From: a virus
Virus record (IMG/VR): IMGVR_UViG_3300045988_180880
Coordinates: 128,001-192,000 of that record
DNA length: 64,000 nt
Reading direction: 5' to 3' (one strand)
Below the pieces are notes generated by a model. It saw only the letters and a list, made by a program, of their open reading frames with translations, did no database searches and had not been told where the DNA came from. Shown piece by piece: positions 18,595-63,947 of the stretch. Each line of letters starts with the position of its first letter. Within the stretch, counting starts at the first letter, position 1. The translations under genes were made by a program, and so were the position numbers.

Positions 18595-19443
18595 TTATAT
18601 GAAATTTAATCTTTTCTGATAAATATTAAATACAAGATTTGATACATTATCTAAATATAATTTCTCTAATGACATTTGTTTAAGTTTATTATATGGAGTA
18701 CCAGATATTTTATTAGAGAATTTATATAATTGTTTTAAATTTATAGTTAATGATCTTTTTAGAAAGAATTCATTAAGTCCAATAAAATTTATAATAATAT
18801 CTATAAATTCTAATACTTTTTTATTATCTCTTATAAAATTTCCAATAATTGTTTTTGAATAGTTTATTGGAATTTCTACCATAGGTAAATTATTAGTTCT
18901 AAAATAGTTTATTATATTATTAGTTATTTTATTAAACAAGTTTATATAAGGAATTGTGTGTTCATCATTACTTCCAAATTCATAATATCTATGAATAATT
19001 ATTCCATAAACACGCTCTACATAGATATCTCTTGCTTTATCATAGATTATTTTTGCTTTATGATATTTAGAATCTATTTCTACGGCTATTCCTAAATAAG
19101 GAAAGAAATAATCTAGTAAAAAGTATCTTGTATTTCTGATACTATCATCCAATCTAACAGAGAAAGAATTTAAAATATTATTCCATAAACTTGTATTCTC
19201 AATTATTATTGGAAATTCCTCAATATAATTATAATATCCTTTAATATTGTAATTATTATCAATAAGATTTTTAAAATTAATAGAATAACTACTCTTATCG
19301 TTTAAAATTGCTTTTTCACGATTAAATACTACATCTATTAATTTATTATTGATTTTTACTTTTCTTGGAACAAAATACATTCCTATATAAGCTGTATAAA
19401 ATTTATCTCTTATTACGTAATTTCTAATCAAATTTAAATCCAT
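18595..19443 (-). CDS. PD-(D/E)XK (DUF559/Vsr-like) homing-endonuclease-like protein, paralog 1
   Basis: YFLLDYFFPYLGIAVEIDSKYHKAKIIYDKARDIYVERVYGIIIHRY parallels the 25279 and 33619 proteins (LDFY.P...lAiE.D...H....D..rd..l...G..v.r). Free-standing with its own promoter. Confidence 0.55.
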   Translation of the reverse strand: MDLNLIRNYVIRDKFYTAYIGMYFVPRKVKINNKLIDVVFNREKAILNDKSSYSINFKNLIDNNYNIKGYYNYIEEFPIIIENTSLWNNILNSFSVRLDDSIRNTRYFLLDYFFPYLGIAVEIDSKYHKAKIIYDKARDIYVERVYGIIIHRYYEFGSNDEHTIPYINLFNKITNNIINYFRTNNLPMVEIPINYSKTIIGNFIRDNKKVLEFIDIIINFIGLNEFFLKRSLTINLKQLYKFSNKISGTPYNKLKQMSLEKLYLDNVSNLVFNIYQKRLNFI

Positions 19444-20135: not shown

Positions 20136-20371
20136 TAAAAAGTAGTTGCCTAAATGATACTATGTTGTTTAGGAAAATCTTATTAAAATGCTGGAAAATT
20201 ACATCACATATATTTTCCGCCCATAATATAAAGGGAGGTTATAAAAAGTGATGGAGAATAAATCAGCAGAAATTATACTAAGATATAATTTTTCAACGAC
20301 TAAATATAAGACTAAGGGGAAGTTCCTTAGATGATATAGTCTATTTTTATATTAAATATATAGATATTCAG
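20136..20371 (+). mobile_element. group I intron (ORF-less, 236 nt) in rusA
   Basis: Classical conserved elements are present: P aaaaTGCTGgaaaa (20189-93), Q aaatCAGCAg (20260-69), R tcaacGACTAaa (20293-20304), S gataTAGTC (20333-41). P pairs with Q (P4) and R pairs with S (P7). Guide sequence AGTA-GTTG (20141-48) pairs with 3' exon TACT (P10) and 5' exon CAAT (P1). The 5' splice site follows U and the intron ends in G. Confidence 0.8.
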
Positions 20372-20974
20372 TACTATAAGAATATAGAGGATATTTGGAC
20401 CAGATTTGTTAAAGAGGATCTGGGTATTGAGAGATATGACGACAATCTTCATGTTGAGATTTCTGCAGTTAAAAGTATTATCCCTAAATCTACTTCAGAA
20501 TATGCATGTTTATACTTAACTGAATCTACTTTTAACGTAAGACTTGATCAAGAAGACAAACCTAAACGTATTTTCTTGGGAGGTACTTGTGGTGGATCGG
20601 CCTGGAGAGATGAATTAATTCCAGAACTTGATAGACTCGGATTTGAATATTTTAATCCCGTTGTACCTGATTGGACTCCTGAATGTATAGAAAAAGAAAA
20701 CATCGAAAAATCCGAACTTTGTAATACACATCTCTATATCATAACCCCGGAGATGAGTGGTGTATATAGTATAGCAGAGATGGTTAATTCAGTTTGGGAA
20801 TGTTTATCAAAGGGATCTGGTTTTGTATGGATTGGAATTCTCGAAAGTGAATCTTGGGAACCTCATCAACTCAAATCACTTCAAGCAACTCTCGATCTAA
20901 TTAACAATATCGCCGATGGAAATAGTAGAATTAGAGCAAAGCTTATAAAAGAATCTAAAGAAATATTAACGTGA
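20372..20974 (+). CDS. rusA: RusA exon 2, continuous in frame with a nucleoside 2-deoxyribosyltransferase-like domain
   Basis: After splicing: ...SDTSN|YYKNIEDIWTRFVKEDLGIERYDDNLHVEISAVKSIIPKSTSEYACLYLTE (compare E. coli DNLQKAAFDAL....WLDDAQVVDYRVVK......LELTITE). With no stop it continues RIFLGGTCGGSAWRDELIPELDRLGFEYFNPVVPDW...LYIITPEMSGVYSIAEM (Nuc_deoxyri_tr2-like). Confidence 0.7.
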   Translation, partial: YYKNIEDIWTRFVKEDLGIERYDDNLHVEISAVKSIIPKSTSEYACLYLTESTFNVRLDQEDKPKRIFLGGTCGGSAWRDELIPELDRLGFEYFNPVVPDWTPECIEKENIEKSELCNTHLYIITPEMSGVYSIAEMVNSVWECLSKGSGFVWIGILESESWEPHQLKSLQATLDLINNIADGNSRIRAKLIKESKEILT

Positions 20975-33618: not shown

Positions 33619-35106
33619 TTAAGCGGATTCTGTGTTATTTTTATCAATATATCTTTTTATTTCTGTTATTAAGTCTTCTTCGGTTGAAATTATTGGTGCA
33701 AAATAACTATCTAACATTTCTTCAATAGTTGAAAAATGTTTTGTTGAGTCTCTACCTTCTCTTTTTAATATTTTAGGAATTGCAAAATAAATTATATCAA
33801 CTCCATGTTCTTTACACAAATTATACTTTATTAAATCTCGTTGTCTATGATTTTTAAATCCTTTCTCTCCTCCCATATAATTTACAGGAACAAAATGTTG
33901 TACTCCATGACCTTCTATTGCTAAGTTTAATTCTGGAATATAAAAATCTAATTCTAAATTCCTTTTATAAACTAACCAATCTAATGTATGACATCTTGGA
34001 ATAAATTCTATTCCCAAAGATTCTAAAATTTTTCTAATAATAGTTTCTATGGCAGATTCTTTTCGTTCTGGATAAACTAATTTCGTTAAATACCCTTCAT
34101 TACTAGCTTTGTGATACTCCTGTGGAAAATTAATTAAAAATTCAGTAGGACTTTGAATATTGTTATTATCTATAAACTCTTGCATTTCTTCAGAAGTTTT
34201 GTACTTGTCACCCCAATTAGCAACACTTGCTTTATATCTTAATTGCGTTCTAATTCCTAAAGTCTTTGCTCTTCCATAAATTTTTGGATAAGTTCTTTCA
34301 AAAGACTTGGCAGAATATATTTCTGGATGTGTATCAATAAATTCTTGAATATCTTCTACTGTATTAAATTCATCCACCAAACTATAAAGTATTCTATTTG
34401 GATATATTACCTTACTTCTTAATCCTAGTTTAGATAATTTAGCATACCCACTTAAAAATCGATTACTAAAATCTTTTGGATTTTGAATATTATTATCATC
34501 TATAAATTTTTGAGCTGACTCTAAATTATATATAGAATCCCAGTTATCTATATTAGTATGTAATCTATTAGGATATACTACAGACCTAGCAAATTTATTT
34601 TTTAATAATTTTCGATAAATTCCACCAAATCTTTTCTTAAAATCAGTTGGGTTTTGTATTTCATTATCATTAATAAATTTTTGATAGTAATCAACAAATT
34701 CTTCTGGATTTGTTCTTTTTGGAAATATTAATTTAGAAATGATTCTTAAGTTATTTGCTCTATTATATATAATTGGATAGTTAATTTTTAAATCAGAGGA
34801 TGATATAATTTGATTATCTTTAATGAATTTATTAATCTTTTCCAGAGAGTTTATATCTCTGTATAATAAGCTAGTTCTTCTATTCGGATAATTTACTTTA
34901 TCGGCAAAATTCTTTCTAACTAGGCGATTATAAATACTTGGATATCCCTTTTTAAAATCTAATGGCCTAGTAATTTTATTGTTATCTATAAACTGTTGAA
35001 AATCCTCAACAGTATTAAAGTCTTTTAAATCTAAAGAATTACTATTGTTCATTCCCGATTTAGCGACAGACTTTTCTTCGCTTTGAGATTTAGGTAAGTT
35101 ATTCAT
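33619..35106 (-). CDS. PD-(D/E)XK (DUF559-like) homing-endonuclease-like protein, paralog 3, with about five N-terminal ~60-aa repeats
   Basis: C-terminus LELDFYIPELNLAIEGHGVQHF...RQRDLIKYNLCKEHGVDIIYF. The N-terminus repeats the module F..FIDdN.I..P.DF...YP.IY.R.......v.YPNR (e.g. VEDFQQFIDNNKITRPLDFKKGYPSIYNRL...NYPNR; AQKFIDDNNIQNPKDF...IYPNR). Confidence 0.6.
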   Translation of the reverse strand: MNNLPKSQSEEKSVAKSGMNNSNSLDLKDFNTVEDFQQFIDNNKITRPLDFKKGYPSIYNRLVRKNFADKVNYPNRRTSLLYRDINSLEKINKFIKDNQIISSSDLKINYPIIYNRANNLRIISKLIFPKRTNPEEFVDYYQKFINDNEIQNPTDFKKRFGGIYRKLLKNKFARSVVYPNRLHTNIDNWDSIYNLESAQKFIDDNNIQNPKDFSNRFLSGYAKLSKLGLRSKVIYPNRILYSLVDEFNTVEDIQEFIDTHPEIYSAKSFERTYPKIYGRAKTLGIRTQLRYKASVANWGDKYKTSEEMQEFIDNNNIQSPTEFLINFPQEYHKASNEGYLTKLVYPERKESAIETIIRKILESLGIEFIPRCHTLDWLVYKRNLELDFYIPELNLAIEGHGVQHFVPVNYMGGEKGFKNHRQRDLIKYNLCKEHGVDIIYFAIPKILKREGRDSTKHFSTIEEMLDSYFAPIISTEEDLITEIKRYIDKNNTESA

Positions 35107-35351: not shown

Positions 35352-37058
35352 TTATTTATTTACTTTTTCTTTCTTAATATCTAACTCCATTATTATAGAA
35401 TCAGATACAATTACCTCAGAATTATCACCTAAATCTAAATTAATGATATTCCCAGAAACTTTTCCATTTACCATTGCAAGAGCTAATTTATCTTCTACAT
35501 ACTTTGAAATATTCTTTGATAAATCTCTAGCTCCGTATTTAGTATCTACTTGATCAATTATAAATTCTTTTAATTTTTCAGATATATTGATTTTATATCC
35601 TTTTTTTGATAAACGATCGCTAAGTTTTGCAATTTCAAGATCAAATATCTTTATCATTTCCGGTTTTCCAAGTTCATTAAAGATAACAATATTACTAAGT
35701 CGTCCAATAAATTCTGGTCTAAAGAATTTTTCCATGGCCTTCATTACTATAGACTTATTATCTTTATTTTTCTCATCTTGACTTTGTTTATTAAATCCGA
35801 GTCCATTTCCTTTTTCAGATAGTTGTTTCGAAGCTACGTTACTAGTCATCAAAATTACGCAGTTCTTAAAACTCACTTCGAGACCGTTACTTAGGTTAGC
35901 TTTTCCTGTGTCAAGAATTCCTAGGAGTAAGTCATAAATATCTTTATGAGCTTTTTCAATTTCATCAAATACAATAACCATATTTGGATTAGTTCTTACT
36001 TTTTCAAAAACTGCTGTATCTGAATCAGATCCTAAATATCCTGGAGCGCTTCCAAGTAATCGGGATACAGAATAACTCTCTGTATATTCTCCCATATTAA
36101 TAAGTAATAAGTTTTTCTCAGCGCTTTCAAAGAAAAGTTCAGCTATCTTCTTAGAAATCAGGCTTTTACCTACACCAGTCGGACCTAATAAAAATGCCGT
36201 ACAGATAGGTTTATTGGGATCCTGTATATCAAGAATTGATTTTTGAAGTGCAGTAACTACAGTATCAACTGCATCTTGTTGTCCTATAATTTCTTTTTCC
36301 AAGACTTTCTTCATGTTTCTAATTTTGATTGCTTCACTATCCTTCATCTTGTTTATAGGAACATTAGAAATCTTAGATACTACTGACATAACATCTTCTT
36401 CAGTTACTTCAGGCCAACCAGAAGGATCATTAAGTTCTCCAATTAACTTTAATCTCTCCTCCTCAAGTTCTTTTTTCAAAACCAATTCAGTATCTCTCCT
36501 CTTCTGAGCCTCATCGAAATCTTGTTCCTCTACTAACCTAATTTTTTCCTTAACAATATCATCAATCGCTTTTTCTAGGTTATCTACAGAACTAGTATCA
36601 ATATTTTTTCTAAGTTTTGCTGCACTAGCTGCAATATCAATACAGTCTATGGCTTTATCTGGGAAATGTCTATCATAGATATATCTTCCACTAAGTTCTA
36701 CACAAAGTTTTAAAATATCATCTGTATATCTTACTCTATGATAATCTTCATATCTTTCCCTAAGTGTCTTTAATATTTCCAAGGTTTCTTCTTTGGTTGG
36801 CTCAGACACCATTACCGTTTGAAATCTTCTTTTAAGAGCACTATCTTTTTCTATATATTTTTTAAATTCTGTAGTTGTTGTTGACCCGAGACATCTGAAT
36901 TTCCCTCTAGCTAATGGACCTTTAAGAATATTAGCTCCATCTCCTTTACCATCATTCGAACCATTACCTACTAGATTGTGTATTTCATCTATATAAATAA
37001 TTATTTCAAGATTATTTTCTACTTCTTTGATTATAGCATCTAAACGCTCTTCATATTG
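35352..37058 (-). CDS. clpC: ClpC-type AAA+ chaperone, exon 2 (rest of NBD1, UVR-like M-domain, NBD2)
   Basis: (Q)YEERLDAIIKEV..IIYIDEIHNLVG (Walker B), ALKRRFQTV, QDFDEAQKRRDTE (UVR-like), FLLGPTGVGKSL (Walker A2), VIVFDEIEKAH (Walker B2), GLGFNKQ (ClpP-docking LGF loop at the position of ClpC VGF), FRPEFIGRL. Confidence 0.85.
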   Translation of the reverse strand, partial: QYEERLDAIIKEVENNLEIIIYIDEIHNLVGNGSNDGKGDGANILKGPLARGKFRCLGSTTTTEFKKYIEKDSALKRRFQTVMVSEPTKEETLEILKTLRERYEDYHRVRYTDDILKLCVELSGRYIYDRHFPDKAIDCIDIAASAAKLRKNIDTSSVDNLEKAIDDIVKEKIRLVEEQDFDEAQKRRDTELVLKKELEEERLKLIGELNDPSGWPEVTEEDVMSVVSKISNVPINKMKDSEAIKIRNMKKVLEKEIIGQQDAVDTVVTALQKSILDIQDPNKPICTAFLLGPTGVGKSLISKKIAELFFESAEKNLLLINMGEYTESYSVSRLLGSAPGYLGSDSDTAVFEKVRTNPNMVIVFDEIEKAHKDIYDLLLGILDTGKANLSNGLEVSFKNCVILMTSNVASKQLSEKGNGLGFNKQSQDEKNKDNKSIVMKAMEKFFRPEFIGRLSNIVIFNELGKPEMIKIFDLEIAKLSDRLSKKGYKINISEKLKEFIIDQVDTKYGARDLSKNISKYVEDKLALAMVNGKVSGNIINLDLGDNSEVIVSDSIIMELDIKKEKVNK

Positions 37059-37280
37059 CATTACGTTAACTATATGAAAATATTTTCATATAGATCAGTA
37101 TATGATTTCAAGTTTAAATATTTAAACTTGGCCAGTCTTTATACGTTACACTAAAGAATATTATCTTTAGTTCGGCATTAAATTACTTAACTAAAGCGTA
37201 AGATAGTTAAGGTTATTCGCCGAATTTACTAGCTTATAATCTAAAGAATCACTTCTTTAAACGGCCATTTTATAATCACA
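37059..37280 (-). mobile_element. probable group I intron (ORF-less, ~222 nt) splitting clpC
   Basis: It interrupts the conserved LVAG..(Y/F)RG-E-(F/Y)EERL motif between FRG and YEERL. Minus-sense order of helices fits P3 (tggcc/ggcca), P4 (ttcggc/gccgaa, with P- and Q-like aaattcggcgaa / aatgccgaac), P5, P6, P7 (gtata/tatac), P8 and P9 hairpins. It shares AACG..UAUAAAGACU with the rusA intron R region. The model splices after U and the intron ends in G. Boundaries are good to a few nt only. Confidence 0.65.
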
Positions 37281-38276
37281 ACCTCTAAATTGGCAACCAG
37301 CCACTAAAGCGTTTAAATCTAATGAGAAGATCCTTTTATCTATCAATTCTCTAGGAACTTCTTTATTTACTATTTTCTGACACAATCCTTCAATAATTGC
37401 GGTCTTTCCACAACCAGCTTCAGCTAATAAAATTCCATTGTTCTTCTTCCTACATGATAGGATTTCAATAATCTGTGAAATTTCTTTATCTCTACCTACA
37501 ATTGGATCATATTCTCCATTTTTTGCAGCTAAAGTCATATCTGTAGAAAATTTATCAAGGAAAGGGGTTCTAGAATTTGGATCTAGGTTTTCGGGCTCAT
37601 TACTTCCTTGTCCAGCCATTTCAAATTCTCGATCTTCCTCTTCGCGACGTTTTTCTGAGTCTTCGTCGCCTTGGTTATAATCGAGAGTTTTTTCTTTAAG
37701 TTCGCCGCCGTTATTTTCCTCACGGTTATCTTCTTGGTCTTTTATTCCAAGTTTCGTATCGAAGTCATTTATCTTCCAAAATAAACTCGTGAGGTCTCTT
37801 GCATCGGCGCCTAATTCATCTACAAGATACTCTGCAATCTTACTAAATTCTGTTTCTGGAAGTGAACACATAAGAAAAGCTAGTGTATCAATATCATCAG
37901 TCATCTCAGATTTTAAATTTATATCTGTCAGTTTATCCAAGATATAATTAATGGCTGGAGACAAGACAATTGAATCAGCGCCAGTATACAATTCAGAAGG
38001 CGCTGTAAATTTATTGTCTTCTCTAATTTCGGCCACTACATCCATTATAAATTCTCTAAGATCTTCCTCTGTACTAGGTTTTCCGATAAACAGATCTTTT
38101 AGATAATCTCTTAGTTCTGGAATATCACCTTCATTATCTAGATAAGTTATAACTATCTGAGAAACTATATGATCTAATGATATTTCTTTTCCCATAAACG
38201 AGACTACTTCTTCATGAGCTTTCTCGAAAAACTTTTTTAATTCTTGAGATAATTCAAATTTTGATGAATCTTTCAT
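37281..38276 (-). CDS. clpC: ClpC-type AAA+ chaperone, exon 1 (Clp_N-like N-domain, acidic insert, NBD1 Walker A)
   Basis: PIVGRDKEISQIIEILSCRKKNNGILLAEAGCGKTAIIEGLCQKIVNKEVPREL..RIFSLDLNALVAGCQFRG matches ClpA/B/C NBD1 up to the RG. The ORF-track tail CDYKMAV is intron read-through. Confidence 0.8.
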
Positions 38277-38313
38277 TTTTCTATTTGTTTAATTTTTATT
38301 ATGTTTATCATCA

Positions 38314-38324
38314 CATTATTAAGG
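38314..38324 (-). promoter_or_regulatory. promoter motif variant upstream of clpC
   Basis: Plus strand cattattaagg, which is CCTTAATAATG on minus; 38 nt upstream of ATG 38276. Confidence 0.4.
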
Positions 38325-38327
38325 AAA

Positions 38328-39101
38328 TCATCGGTAAATTTTATATCTATTTTTTGCTTCAGAGATATAATCATTAATATCTTCTTGAGTAATAGTTATA
38401 TCTTTTATGTTTTTAAATTTGTTAGCCCAATTACTACACCAACTCCTCCAACTAGTATCACCTTCAAGTTCTTTTATGTACTCAAGAATTTCTCCTTCTC
38501 CTTTAATATTTCTTTTTGGGACCCACCCCGAACAATTCTCAAAGGATTCATTTCGATCATATATTGATTTTACTTTTATCGAAATTTTCTTTTTCTTTTT
38601 CAACCATTTAAAGAAATCTTTTATAGGATTTGGATACATTAACTTCGGAAACTTATAAATCTCATAATCTTCAGTTACAACTATATAAATCCTTGATTCT
38701 TTTCCTAAGGTCGGTGTCTTAAGAAATGGAAGATCGACTCGTTTGGCATCTATATAAACCTTAGTATTCCACCATCTAAAAGTATCTGGTTTATTTGTAT
38801 CTTTTACTTGATATAACATAAAATCTCCAGAAATATCAATAGCATCTACAGCTAAACCTGTTTTTCCAGTAGAATCATCTATGACTACTTGAGAGTTTCC
38901 TTCTTCAAAGAGATCCATAACTTGAGATGCACCATGTTCTACTATATAAAGTGTTTTCCCTGTTAGATTATCAATAGTTTCTAAGTCTTTTTTATCTCCT
39001 TCTGAAAGTTCTACAAACATATACCCATCTGTACGCGTTACAGATCTAGTTCCAGTAATTCGGTCTAATTTTGTTTTCTTTACTAATTCTTCTGGTTTCA
39101 T
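38328..39101 (-). CDS. hypothetical protein (immediately upstream of clpC)
   Basis: 257-aa ORF. Confidence 0.65.
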   Translation of the reverse strand: MKPEELVKKTKLDRITGTRSVTRTDGYMFVELSEGDKKDLETIDNLTGKTLYIVEHGASQVMDLFEEGNSQVVIDDSTGKTGLAVDAIDISGDFMLYQVKDTNKPDTFRWWNTKVYIDAKRVDLPFLKTPTLGKESRIYIVVTEDYEIYKFPKLMYPNPIKDFFKWLKKKKKISIKVKSIYDRNESFENCSGWVPKRNIKGEGEILEYIKELEGDTSWRSWCSNWANKFKNIKDITITQEDINDYISEAKNRYKIYR

Positions 39102-39102
39102 G

Positions 39103-39642
39103 TTAAATTATTCTCGGTTCATTAATAATTCCTTTATCAATTAGATAGTTTCGATAGAGAAGATTTATAACAAATTCAGGTGATTTACAACAAAATTCTC
39201 TATCTACTACCTTTAGATTTTTCAATAGTTCAAATAAAGAAACTTCAGGTAAATATTCTTTCCTACAACAAATGCTATTATTTCTATTTACAATATCTAA
39301 TCTTGAATCTGTATAGATTAATTTTTTCTCTCGATTTAGTATATTTATTATTTTTCTATTAGAAAGTTTTTTACAGATATACCCTTCTGTAACAAAATAT
39401 AAAAATACCTCAGATAAAGAAGCTAGACGTACATCCTTTTCTAATTGAATTCCTTCAAAAAATTTTAACACATAAGTTTTATCAAAAAGATTTTTATAAT
39501 TATTCCTAGATAAAATATATCTTGAGTGTAAAAATGGAAAAGTATATAATAAATCTTCTTTATTTGAAGAAGAAATTTCTAAGTAAGTGTATTTTGCTCC
39601 TTTAAAATTTATATAACTTAATAACATACTTACTTTCCCCAT
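39103..39642 (-). CDS. hypothetical protein, tandem paralog A
   Basis: C-terminus LLYRNYLIDKGIINEPRII parallels the neighbour's IIFRNYLIDTGKITGEPKI. Confidence 0.6.
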   Translation of the reverse strand: MGKVSMLLSYINFKGAKYTYLEISSSNKEDLLYTFPFLHSRYILSRNNYKNLFDKTYVLKFFEGIQLEKDVRLASLSEVFLYFVTEGYICKKLSNRKIINILNREKKLIYTDSRLDIVNRNNSICCRKEYLPEVSLFELLKNLKVVDREFCCKSPEFVINLLYRNYLIDKGIINEPRII

Positions 39643-40196
39643 TTTAAATTTATTTTTGGTTCTCCAGTAATTTTTCCAGTATCTATAAGATAATTTCGAA
39701 AGATTATAGTTTTTAGAAATCCTGTTACAGTTTTAAATTTCTTTTCAGGGATAGGAACCACAGAAGTCAGAATATCCTTTCTAGTAAATGAGTTTAATTC
39801 GTACTCCCTGATTAATCGGGTTCCTGGTTGTTTATTCAACGATTCTACTTCCATTATAAATGAAAGTTGTATCATTGGATCTTTATAAAGTCTTTTTGAC
39901 ATAGAATTAAGATTTGAAATTTTTGGACGGTCAATTGAGGATGCTAAAACTAATCCTACTTTAGAGAAATCCATTAATTGTATTGGTCTTTCTTTTTCGA
40001 ATTTTTCTAAGTATGGTTTTAATTTTACTTCGTCCTGTACAATTTCAAAACTAAATCCAGGTTCTGCAAACACTTCGAATCTACCATAATCTACATAAGG
40101 TATTGTAATTTTTTCTGTAGAATTTGATTCTGTAAGTACTGTATAATATACTGTGAATACATTTTGTATAACACATTGATAAACTTTTACATCCAT
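39630..40196 (-). CDS. hypothetical protein, tandem paralog B
   Basis: See 39103..39642. Confidence 0.6.
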   Translation of the reverse strand: MDVKVYQCVIQNVFTVYYTVLTESNSTEKITIPYVDYGRFEVFAEPGFSFEIVQDEVKLKPYLEKFEKERPIQLMDFSKVGLVLASSIDRPKISNLNSMSKRLYKDPMIQLSFIMEVESLNKQPGTRLIREYELNSFTRKDILTSVVPIPEKKFKTVTGFLKTIIFRNYLIDTGKITGEPKINLKWGK

Positions 40197-53469: not shown

Positions 53470-53603
53470 TTTTGAAGCCTAGAAAAAGAAAAATCCCCAA
53501 TCTTCACAGACTAGGGACTTCTATTAAACTTTAAAAACTAATACTAACAAACAAAACACATCTATATGTTTACCATTAATTAAGATTCTGAATCGCTGTA
53601 AAG

Positions 53604-62545: not shown

Positions 62546-62623
62546 GACAAGATAGTTTAGCGGGTCAAAACACTAAGATAATTGTTTATCTTAGAATCTC
62601 AGGTTAGAATCCTGATCAAGTTC
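62546..62623 (+). ncRNA. tRNA-like element (non-canonical; not confidently a functional tRNA)
   Basis: TA at positions 8-9; D-arm gttt-agcgggtca-aaac with A14, GG and A21; T-arm tcagg-ttagaat-cctga. However, the acceptor gacaaga/tcaagtt has 2 mismatches, the T-loop has A where C56 should be, and the anticodon arm is ctaagat-aattgttt-atcttag (7 bp/8 nt, or 8 bp/6 nt). No encoded CCA. Confidence 0.35.
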
Positions 62624-63467: not shown

Positions 63468-63947
63468 ATGGGAACAAATTTCTATGCAGTAATCCCAGTG
63501 AAAAAAAGGGATAAAGAAAAAGCAAAAAAATTAATTGACGAAAACAAATTTAGTGAAGCAGCCGATCTTTTAAAGGATATAACAAAAGAAATACACCTAG
63601 GTAAAAGATCGGCCGGGTGGAAGTTTTTATTCAACGCCAATCTCGGAAAATATTATGAACTTACTCGCGAAGGTATAAATAAGTTCTTCGCGAAAAATAA
63701 TGTTATAATAAAAGACGAATATGGCGTTGAGTATACGGCCGAGGAATTTTGGGAGAGTGAATTAAAAGAGTTCTTGGATAAAGGATATGACTTAGAGAGC
63801 TACTATAATGACAATCCAGATGAAGTTAGTCCATATTTTAGCTACTCTCGATCAATACCTTCCGAACTAAAAAAATATAACCCAAATAAATACGGGGAAT
63901 TTTATAGTGATGGTCTAAGATTCACCATCACTGAAGATTTTTGTTAA
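63468..63947 (+). CDS. hypothetical protein
   Basis: 159-aa ORF; contains two CGGCCG sites. Confidence 0.65.
   Translation: MGTNFYAVIPVKKRDKEKAKKLIDENKFSEAADLLKDITKEIHLGKRSAGWKFLFNANLGKYYELTREGINKFFAKNNVIIKDEYGVEYTAEEFWESELKEFLDKGYDLESYYNDNPDEVSPYFSYSRSIPSELKKYNPNKYGEFYSDGLRFTITEDFC

Follow-up and report, generated by a model that had tools for sequence, protein, structure and literature searches.

A clpC-like gene for an AAA+ unfoldase is interrupted in the window analysed here, a stretch of 64,000 nt covering positions 128,001 to 192,000 of the viral record IMGVR_UViG_3300045988_180880, and the question raised by this locus is whether the gene yields two proteins or one. The gene is covered on the minus strand by two open reading frames (ORFs) of 339 and 569 amino acids (aa), hereafter ORF-N and ORF-C, and both the JGI annotation and gene callers list them as separate genes, 'ClpA' (339 aa) and 'ClpC' (569 aa). 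Between the two halves lie 222 nt (37280..37059) that can be read with considerable confidence as a compact, ORF-less, self-splicing group I intron. An earlier note, made from the letters alone, had proposed that such an intron splits clpC; this core interpretation stands, although two of its details did not.

An exact insertion in clpC

The limits of the insert were determined by comparison with six intron-less alleles (L002 and L005-L009; 82-85% aa identity). These alleles read AGAGGT followed, with no gap, by CA(A/G)TATGAAGAG (also written AGAGGT followed by CARTATGAAGAG), and in L005 the site is ...TTTAGAGGT joined directly to CAGTATGAAGAG.... An insert of 222, 225 or 226 nt lies exactly between GGT and CAA in the window and in ten further loci; L001, L003, L016 and L019 are among these intron-bearing relatives. 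The last exon base is U37281 and the last base of the insert is G37059, and because no base is common to both sides of either boundary, the limits are unambiguous. The length of about 222 nt proposed in the earlier note thus proved to be exactly 222 nt in the window, and its placement of a U before and a G at the end of the insert agreed with the intron-less alleles. In the same comparison, the insert boundaries showed neither a target-site duplication nor terminal repeats of either orientation (inverted or direct).

A protein search retrieved uninterrupted homologues of 902 aa (85% identity) and many of 899 aa (82% identity) on contigs of up to 386 kb, together with separate C-terminal ORFs of 567-569 aa (88-99% identity). 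The 339-aa ORF of the window was present on 39 contigs, and the 569-aa ORF of the window's cluster on 143 contigs of up to 403 kb. In IMG/VR, no intron-less allele with flanks of the window type was found.

Taking out 37280..37059 left exons of 996 and 1707 nt, both in frame, which encode a single protein of 900 aa. Alignment of the joined protein with ClpC of Bacillus subtilis (PDB 3j3t) gave one segment (E 1e-167) that crossed the junction free of gaps ('agcqfrgqyeerl' in the joined product, 'agtkyrgefedrl' in B. subtilis). The two ORFs had been described earlier as split between FRG and QYEERL and as rejoined through FRG-Q-YEERL; the ORF coordinates match this description, and both the gap-free alignment and the intron-less alleles agree with the junction. 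Pfam domains were detected on ORF-C (AAA_lid_9, AAA_2 and ClpB_D2-small), and ORF-N alone had no Pfam match. The break lies inside the first nucleotide-binding domain (NBD1), 2 residues past the pore-loop aromatic residue, in a motif known from Clp/Hsp100 proteins as the NBD1 pore loop, situated between Walker A in exon 1 and Walker B in exon 2.

Comparison of the window with L001, both insert-bearing, gave dN/dS values of 0.067 for exon 1 (dS 0.19) and 0.083 for exon 2 (dS 0.84). As judged from these substitution ratios, both halves of clpC are under strong purifying selection in the intron-bearing lineages, which indicates that the split allele is functional.

The region from 35352 to 39776 was also observed to be a mosaic when compared with L001 and L005. 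The upstream part and exon 1 are 96-100% identical to L001, and exon 2 is 66-94% identical to L001 and often nearer to the intron-less L005, with a recombination junction near the intron.

Predicted fold of the insert and its variation

Folding of the sense strand with RNAfold gave a minimum free energy structure of -59.7 kcal/mol (z = -5.68), and none of 200 shuffled sequences was equally stable. This structure recovered P2, P3, P4, P5, P6, P8 and P9 in the canonical group I order. The antisense strand was 9.4 kcal/mol less stable, as expected from the G.U pairs of the sense strand, and had a z-score of -5.5. The insert very probably folds as a compact group I core with P1 to P10, in which a P7 of 5 bp (GUAUA/UAUAC) would close the canonical pseudoknot with P3, and G37144-C37098 is the candidate guanosine-binding pair. 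The P7.1/P7.2 extension of subgroups IA1/IA2 (T4 td/Twort type) is not present, the gap between P7 and the 3' strand of P3 being 3 nt (AAG). The coordinates of all elements are given in the table below.

The helices listed in the earlier note were recovered in the cases of P4, P5, P6, P7, P8 and P9, while its P3 (UGGCC/GGCCA) had been misassigned. Both RNAfold and a covariance model trained on Twort introns placed P3 at GCUAGU/ACUGGC, upstream of J3/4 (AAA) and P4, and UGGCC cannot be P3 because P2 would then fall between P3 and P4. The same UGGCC is instead the predicted internal guide, for which the earlier note had found no candidate: P1 would be formed by GGU of the exon and UGU of the intron with AUGGCC, and P10 by CA/UG. 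The proposed P1 has a U37281.G37266 wobble at the 5' splice site and a hairpin energy of -3.9 kcal/mol. By inspection, G37266 (intron nt 15) is the sole G of the intron with 3' neighbours complementary to the exon end. The candidate P10 pairs G37267 and U37268 with C37058 and A37057. The partial alignment to the Rfam group I model (Intron_gpI, RF00028) likewise assigned UGGCC to P1, as part of its 3' strand, and the following hairpin to P2.

A competing pairing was also noted, since intron nt 1-7 (UGUGAUU; 37274-37280) can base-pair with J8/7 and the beginning of the 3' strand of P7 (37100-37108, AAAUCAUA). The resulting 7-bp helix was predicted by both RNAfold and RNAalifold, is invariant among the intron variants, and competes with P1 and P7.

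Four distinct intron variants, at least 91% identical, were compared to evaluate the fold. The 63 modelled pairs were 99.2% paired, as against 33-47% when the partners were slid by 1-3 columns, and pairing was kept in 8 of the 9 variable paired columns. A further 13 variable columns were unpaired, and the 4 indel columns were all in loops. In P2, two pairs were fully compensatory (A-U to G-C in one, G-C to A-U in the other) and two further changes involved wobbles, and P4 and P5 had one wobble change apiece. The pairs of P1, P6, P7, P8 and P9 were invariant, with the two variable columns of the P1 hairpin both in its loop and all six P1 pairs unchanged; compensatory changes were confined to the peripheral P2, and P7 offered no covariation test because all five of its pairs are invariant. 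This pattern supports constraint at the RNA level.

Splicing of the insert would then proceed as follows. The gene would be transcribed into one pre-mRNA. A ribosome entering the intron would meet the UAA after seven codons and halt there, so that folding of the ribozyme core would not be disturbed. The exon end GGU would pair with the internal guide GCC in P1, the G-C pair of P7 would bind an exogenous guanosine, which would attack past U37281, and G37059 would next take the same site, so that the exons would be ligated. The product would be a single mRNA for the 900-aa ClpC with ...AGCQFRG-QYEERL... restored. We infer that the insert itself catalyses these steps.

Coordinates of the clpC locus, of the predicted elements of its insert, and of related features in the window
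Feature	Position	Strand	Description
clpC exon 1	37281..38276	minus	332 codons, 996 nt; N-terminal region and Walker A part of NBD1; last base U37281
clpC exon 2	35352..37058	minus	1707 nt including stop; QYEERL..., Walker B of NBD1, M-domain, NBD2, D2-small
ORF-N, N-terminal clpC half	38276..37257	minus	339 aa, ending ...LVAGCQFRG-CDYKMAV-stop (...LNALVAGCQFRG-CDYKMAV-stop)
ORF-C, C-terminal clpC half	37061..35352	minus	569 aa, beginning M-QYEERLDAII
Intervening sequence, putative ORF-less group I intron	37059..37280	minus	222 nt; first base 37280, terminal omega-G 37059
Predicted P1 hairpin	37263..37283	minus	exon GGU (37283-37281) and intron UGU with AUGGCC (37268-37263)
In-frame UAA stop	37257..37259	minus	7 codons into the intron, directly past the internal guide
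Predicted P2 hairpin	37240..37261	minus	UUUAAAGAA / UUCUUUAGA; invariant GUGA (GNRA-type) loop though the stem varies
Predicted P3 5' strand GCUAGU, then J3/4 AAA	37228..37233	minus	pairs with 37136-37131 (RNAfold, Twort-trained model)
Predicted P4 (UUCGGC/GCCGAA) enclosing P5 (CUUAACU/AGUUAAG)	37171..37224	minus	J4/5 and J5/4 A-rich
Predicted P6 hairpin CUAAAGA/UCUUUAG	37151..37170	minus	RNAfold, RNAalifold, variant comparison
Predicted J6/7 UGUAAC, P7 5' strand GUAUA (37144-37140), J7/3 AAG, P3 3' strand ACUGGC (37136-37131)	37131..37150	minus	
Predicted P8 hairpin AAGUUUA/UAAACUU	37110..37129	minus	indels in its loop only
Predicted J8/7 GAAAUCA, P7 3' strand UAUAC (37102-37098), then CUGA	37095..37109	minus	
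Predicted P9 hairpin CUAUAUGAAA/UUUCAUAUAG, then UUAACGUAAUG up to omega-G	37070..37093	minus	RNAfold, Twort-trained model, RNAalifold
rusA-like gene insert, probable group I intron	about 20139-20400, core 20146-20363	plus	canonical P7 GACUA/UAGUC, S-box GAUAUAGUCU
Putative free-standing homing endonuclease gene	33619..35106	minus	495 aa, 246 nt downstream of clpC

These features of the insert also bear on a truly split gene, in which the insert, be it a dead intron or some other insertion, would stay in the RNA and the 339-aa and 569-aa products would assemble into ClpC, the second being translated from the AUG that makes up the last three bases of the insert. The in-frame ATG of ORF-C lies exactly at the junction, gene callers and JGI list two genes, purifying selection on both halves is equally predicted, and assembly at the protein level has a phage precedent in NrdA of Aeh1, which is split by a mobile endonuclease gene (PMC3045599). 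No Shine-Dalgarno-like sequence was found upstream of the starts examined (38276, 39101, 39642, 40196, 35106 and 19857), where the sequence is A/T-rich; since no gene examined has one, its absence before ORF-C is uninformative and does not separate one product from two. Against two proteins, the break divides one alpha/beta fold of NBD1 between its Walker A and Walker B motifs, with no protein-interaction modules or extra domains at the break. The insert is moreover constrained as RNA, through compensatory changes and loop-only indels, the ATG stands just 3' of the stable P9 hairpin, and the U and G ends and the group I layout would have to be coincidence. Two assembling products are therefore considered improbable, and a spliced group I intron remains the preferred explanation.

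A ribosome might also be carried over the 222 nt by translational bypassing of the T4 gene 60 type or by some other recoding event. An in-frame stop soon past the break, followed by stable hairpins, would suit it, but the take-off codon GGU and the landing site AUG/CAA provide no matching codon pair, and the 222 nt exceed four times the gap of 50 nt bypassed in gene 60. Recoding is accordingly regarded as a scarcely credible explanation. Three other types of element were considered and rejected: a group II intron (the insert is too short and its ends are wrong), an intein (the insert contains stop codons) and a transposon-like insert (repeats and a target duplication are lacking).

Covariance models and comparison with group I introns

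Three proven orf142 introns of phage Twort served as controls for RF00028 and scored 100.9, 97.4 and 63.6 bits. At the gathering score, a search of the whole Twort genome (AY954970, 1-130706) returned these three introns only. If, as presumed, the Twort gene nrdE holds further proven introns, the model overlooks part of the validated introns of phages. The Rfam model treats P7 as the fixed sequence GACUA...UAGUC, and the clpC insert is changed in 2 of the 5 pairs on both strands, which would fit a loss of part of its score.

Two further models were built. Model R1, made from the clpC insert, found only clpC copies in the window and 17 related loci; the Twort intron I3 was its third-best match in 100 kb (E 0.82, 5' half in register). 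Model R2 was built from two proven Twort cores only, with P7.1/P7.2 excised, because the MAFFT alignment of the three Twort introns was not structure-consistent, and it was run as an exhaustive search with filters off. Over the window's 128 kb, the best match of R2 was an insert in a rusA-like gene (15.1 bits, E 0.055), followed in second place by the clpC insert (13.2 bits, E 0.16). The latter match spanned the full length and kept the register of P3, J3/4, P4, P6, J6/7, P7, P3', P8, J8/7, P7' and P9. In the intron-bearing relatives the insert was again the top match, with 15.8 bits in L019. By rank, this result is suggestive of a group I core; by score, it is not significant. A scored descriptor of the group I core also placed the locus first among 1280 bins of the window, narrowly (76 compared with 74.2 and 73.2), and one runner-up is a false positive inside an intact ORF. 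A first, boolean descriptor had given thousands of matches and was useless.

Several results weigh against the intron. At neither the gathering score nor E ≤ 10 did Intron_gpI match in the wider searches of the window, and over the whole window, 551 nt and 246 nt, Rfam yielded no more than one partial RF00028 match of 15 bits. The fold did not cleanly withstand the covariance models, whose rejection of it the earlier note had named as a refutation: the bare insert reached 15.0 bits (E 0.12) with RF00028, in a partial and mis-registered alignment, against a gathering threshold of 50. Since the Twort introns score 64-101 bits, this miss is specific to the clpC insert and does not reflect blindness of the model to small phage introns. 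Chance matches of R2 reached 13.0 bits in intron-less coding sequence, so that 13.2 bits lies at the top of the noise. P1 has just 3 exon pairs and P10 just 2. Informative covariation was nil in P1, P3 and P7 among the variants, and one change in P3 (U.G to U.U, L011/L001) weakens the helix. RNAalifold keeps P2, P4, P5, P6, P8 and P9 and swaps P3 for alternative pairings. Finally, the exact spliced proteins of three alleles were absent from a collection of 15 billion proteins. Taken together, the covariance models are only weakly supportive of a group I assignment.

The lack of a significant score with either the curated or the custom models would also be expected if the insert were no intron at all, but another kind of insertion, for instance a miniature mobile element, a structured terminator or a regulatory cassette, which inactivates clpC or merely regulates it and resembles group I RNA through chance AT-rich hairpins. 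The loose descriptor is high inside intact ORFs as well (e.g., at 63552-63701), and a stable fold is predicted for the antisense strand too (z = -5.5). Such an element, however, would be at odds with the lack of terminal repeats and of a target-site duplication, with the dN/dS values of a clpC that is not decaying, and with the position of the insert at a codon boundary, where its removal restores a universally conserved motif. Searches of the rest of the window, of 92 kb from related loci and of IMG/VR revealed no copy outside clpC. Scans for distant copies with 17-mers returned clpC loci only, plus two GC-rich chance matches, and a core pattern returned clpC loci only; a pattern in which P7 was unconstrained gave three chance matches on metagenome contigs, and blastn of the insert against 50,697 annotated phages gave nothing significant. 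A non-intron insertion is thus held to be very unlikely.

Direct comparison with the Twort orf142 introns, which are proven to self-splice, revealed the same general design: they are likewise compact and ORF-less, lie in a phage protein gene, and follow the P1-P9 order. The J6/7 segments are near-identical (GUGCAAC in Twort, GUGUAAC in clpC), and the clpC J6/7-P7-J7/3-P3' region aligns in register to GUGCAAC-GACUA-AAAU-GGGGAUU of Twort. The framing of P7 by 'AAC-G' and 'C-U-G-A' is that of Twort (the 'C-G...C-U-G' frame), and the P9 end CAUAUAG is similar. In contrast, Twort has P7.1/P7.2 between P7 and P3', which the clpC insert lacks, and its P7 (GACUA/UAGUC) differs from that of clpC (GUAUA/UAUAC) at two pairs, each altered on both strands. 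Their sequences are too dissimilar for a model of either to score the other significantly.

The insert in the rusA-like gene is a second probable group I intron, which reached 23.4 bits (E 5.6e-4) over its full length when searched alone with RF00028. The earlier note had regarded the clpC intron as its relative on account of a common string. The string AACGACTAAATATAAGACT occurs once in the window (20295-20313) as described, and in structural register the 'UAUAAGACU' string falls on different elements, P7, J7/3 and P3' in clpC but J7/3 and P3' in rusA. The proposed kinship found no support, and R1 failed to find the rusA insert at E ≤ 10. Both inserts break conserved genes, have a group I layout without P7.1/P7.2, and are the two top matches of R2; according to these models, they share class-level features only and are not close relatives.

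The neighbouring putative endonuclease gene and the phage context

The 495-aa ORF next to clpC matched the PHROG families phrog_559 ('HNH endonuclease', 5e-23) and phrog_9084 ('homing endonuclease', 7e-18), and had no Pfam match. It contains internal repeats of about 60 aa, and the part that matches the PHROG HNH/homing endonucleases is its C-terminal region. DNA of this gene was present in the intron-bearing L003 and L016 and absent downstream of clpC in the intron-less L005 and L007, a pattern that comes from very few genomes. In L003, which is 98% identical, the gene is broken into ORFs of 96 and 253 aa.

This arrangement resembles that of cyanophage S-PM2, where the psbA intron and the adjacent free-standing endonuclease F-CphI constitute 'collaborative homing' (Zeng, Bonocora & Shub 2009, per PMC6083498). 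In both cases, a small ORF-less group I intron or candidate intron lies in a phage gene (a T4-like phage in the case of S-PM2), with a free-standing homing-endonuclease-like gene adjoining. The clpC neighbour, in contrast, is HNH-like by PHROG, while F-CphI is Endo VII-like, and the clpC pairing is known from adjacency and co-occurrence in few genomes. It is a matter of speculation that the adjacent gene helped the spread or persistence of the clpC intron.

A more far-reaching reading combines a divergent minimal branch of group I introns, HNH-dependent spread, an unfoldase gated by splicing and a splicing-off conformation, and as a whole it is doubtful. The traits of such a branch may be a P7 made of A-U pairs except for the G-binding pair, the lack of P7.1/P7.2, a P1 of 3 bp and invisibility to RF00028. 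The efficiency of splicing might gate production of the phage unfoldase, the 7-bp pairing of nt 1-7 with J8/7 could be the alternative conformation in which splicing is off, and collaborative homing via the neighbouring HNH-like endonuclease may operate in a Bacteroides jumbo phage.

Near the rusA-like gene, an ORF of 282 aa (18595-19443, minus strand) had a sub-threshold match to a PvuRts1I-like nuclease N-terminal domain (E 9e-4) and shares the motif 'LD(F/Y).(I/F)P.L..A(I/V)E' with the 495-aa ORF, which makes it a candidate for a second endonuclease of the free-standing kind.

The host genome fits a jumbo ('Jug'-type) phage of the human gut of roughly 380 kb. The GC content of the window is 29.6%, and its close relatives are on human-gut contigs of 362-403 kb. 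One of them, IMGVR_UViG_3300045988_180488 (377,817 bp, 29.7% GC, human gut), matches the window at 100% identity over a 342-nt stretch that includes the intron and at about 98% identity downstream of clpC, and is listed in the huge-phage collection table of Chen et al. (PMC12880540). The missing Shine-Dalgarno-like sequences are consistent with a host of the Bacteroidota type. Jug phages have genomes of 360-402 kb with about 30% GC and infect Bacteroides/Phocaeicola (Chen, Camargo, ... Koonin, ... Li, Sci Adv 2026, PMC12880540; preprint PMC12363816). According to the same study, group I introns, 2513 in all and averaging about 206 nt, occur in 136 of the 139 Jug genomes (about 18 per genome), metatranscriptome reads cover the splice junctions of 37 of 76 tested predicted introns, and the genomes have many stand-alone HNH endonuclease genes as well as ORF-less inserts that break essential genes. 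For calling those introns, subtype covariance models (Selles Vidal et al. 2025) were applied with a cut-off of E ≤ 1e-4 (PMC12880540). The window resembles the Jug genomes in kind (human gut, size, GC, no Shine-Dalgarno), and its clpC insert resembles their introns in kind of element. The interrupted genes named in the text of Chen et al. are terL, nrdD and DNA polymerase, and ClpC is not mentioned in that text; our literature search yielded no publication that connects ClpC with group I introns and phages.

Recognition of the intron rejoins two annotated proteins into one ClpC-type unfoldase of 900 aa in a very abundant group of human-gut phages, where the two-protein annotation of clpC extends over well over a hundred gut-metagenome contigs. 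As small group I introns in genes of Jug and crAss-like phages have already been published, the clpC intron adds little conceptually; it is a well-documented example of the published Jug kind and no new kind of element. Its main value lies in the annotation and in the Rfam false negative, since a probable group I intron missed by the standard model calls for caution in intron censuses. The intron and the adjoining candidate homing endonuclease also provide a testable pair for collaborative homing.

Elsewhere in the window, the Rfam search gave a sub-threshold match to ctRNA_p42d at 53482-53522 on the minus strand (28.2 bits compared with a threshold of 50, E 0.051). The only match above the gathering score in the window was a tRNA gene at 62546-62623 on the plus strand (39.8 bits).

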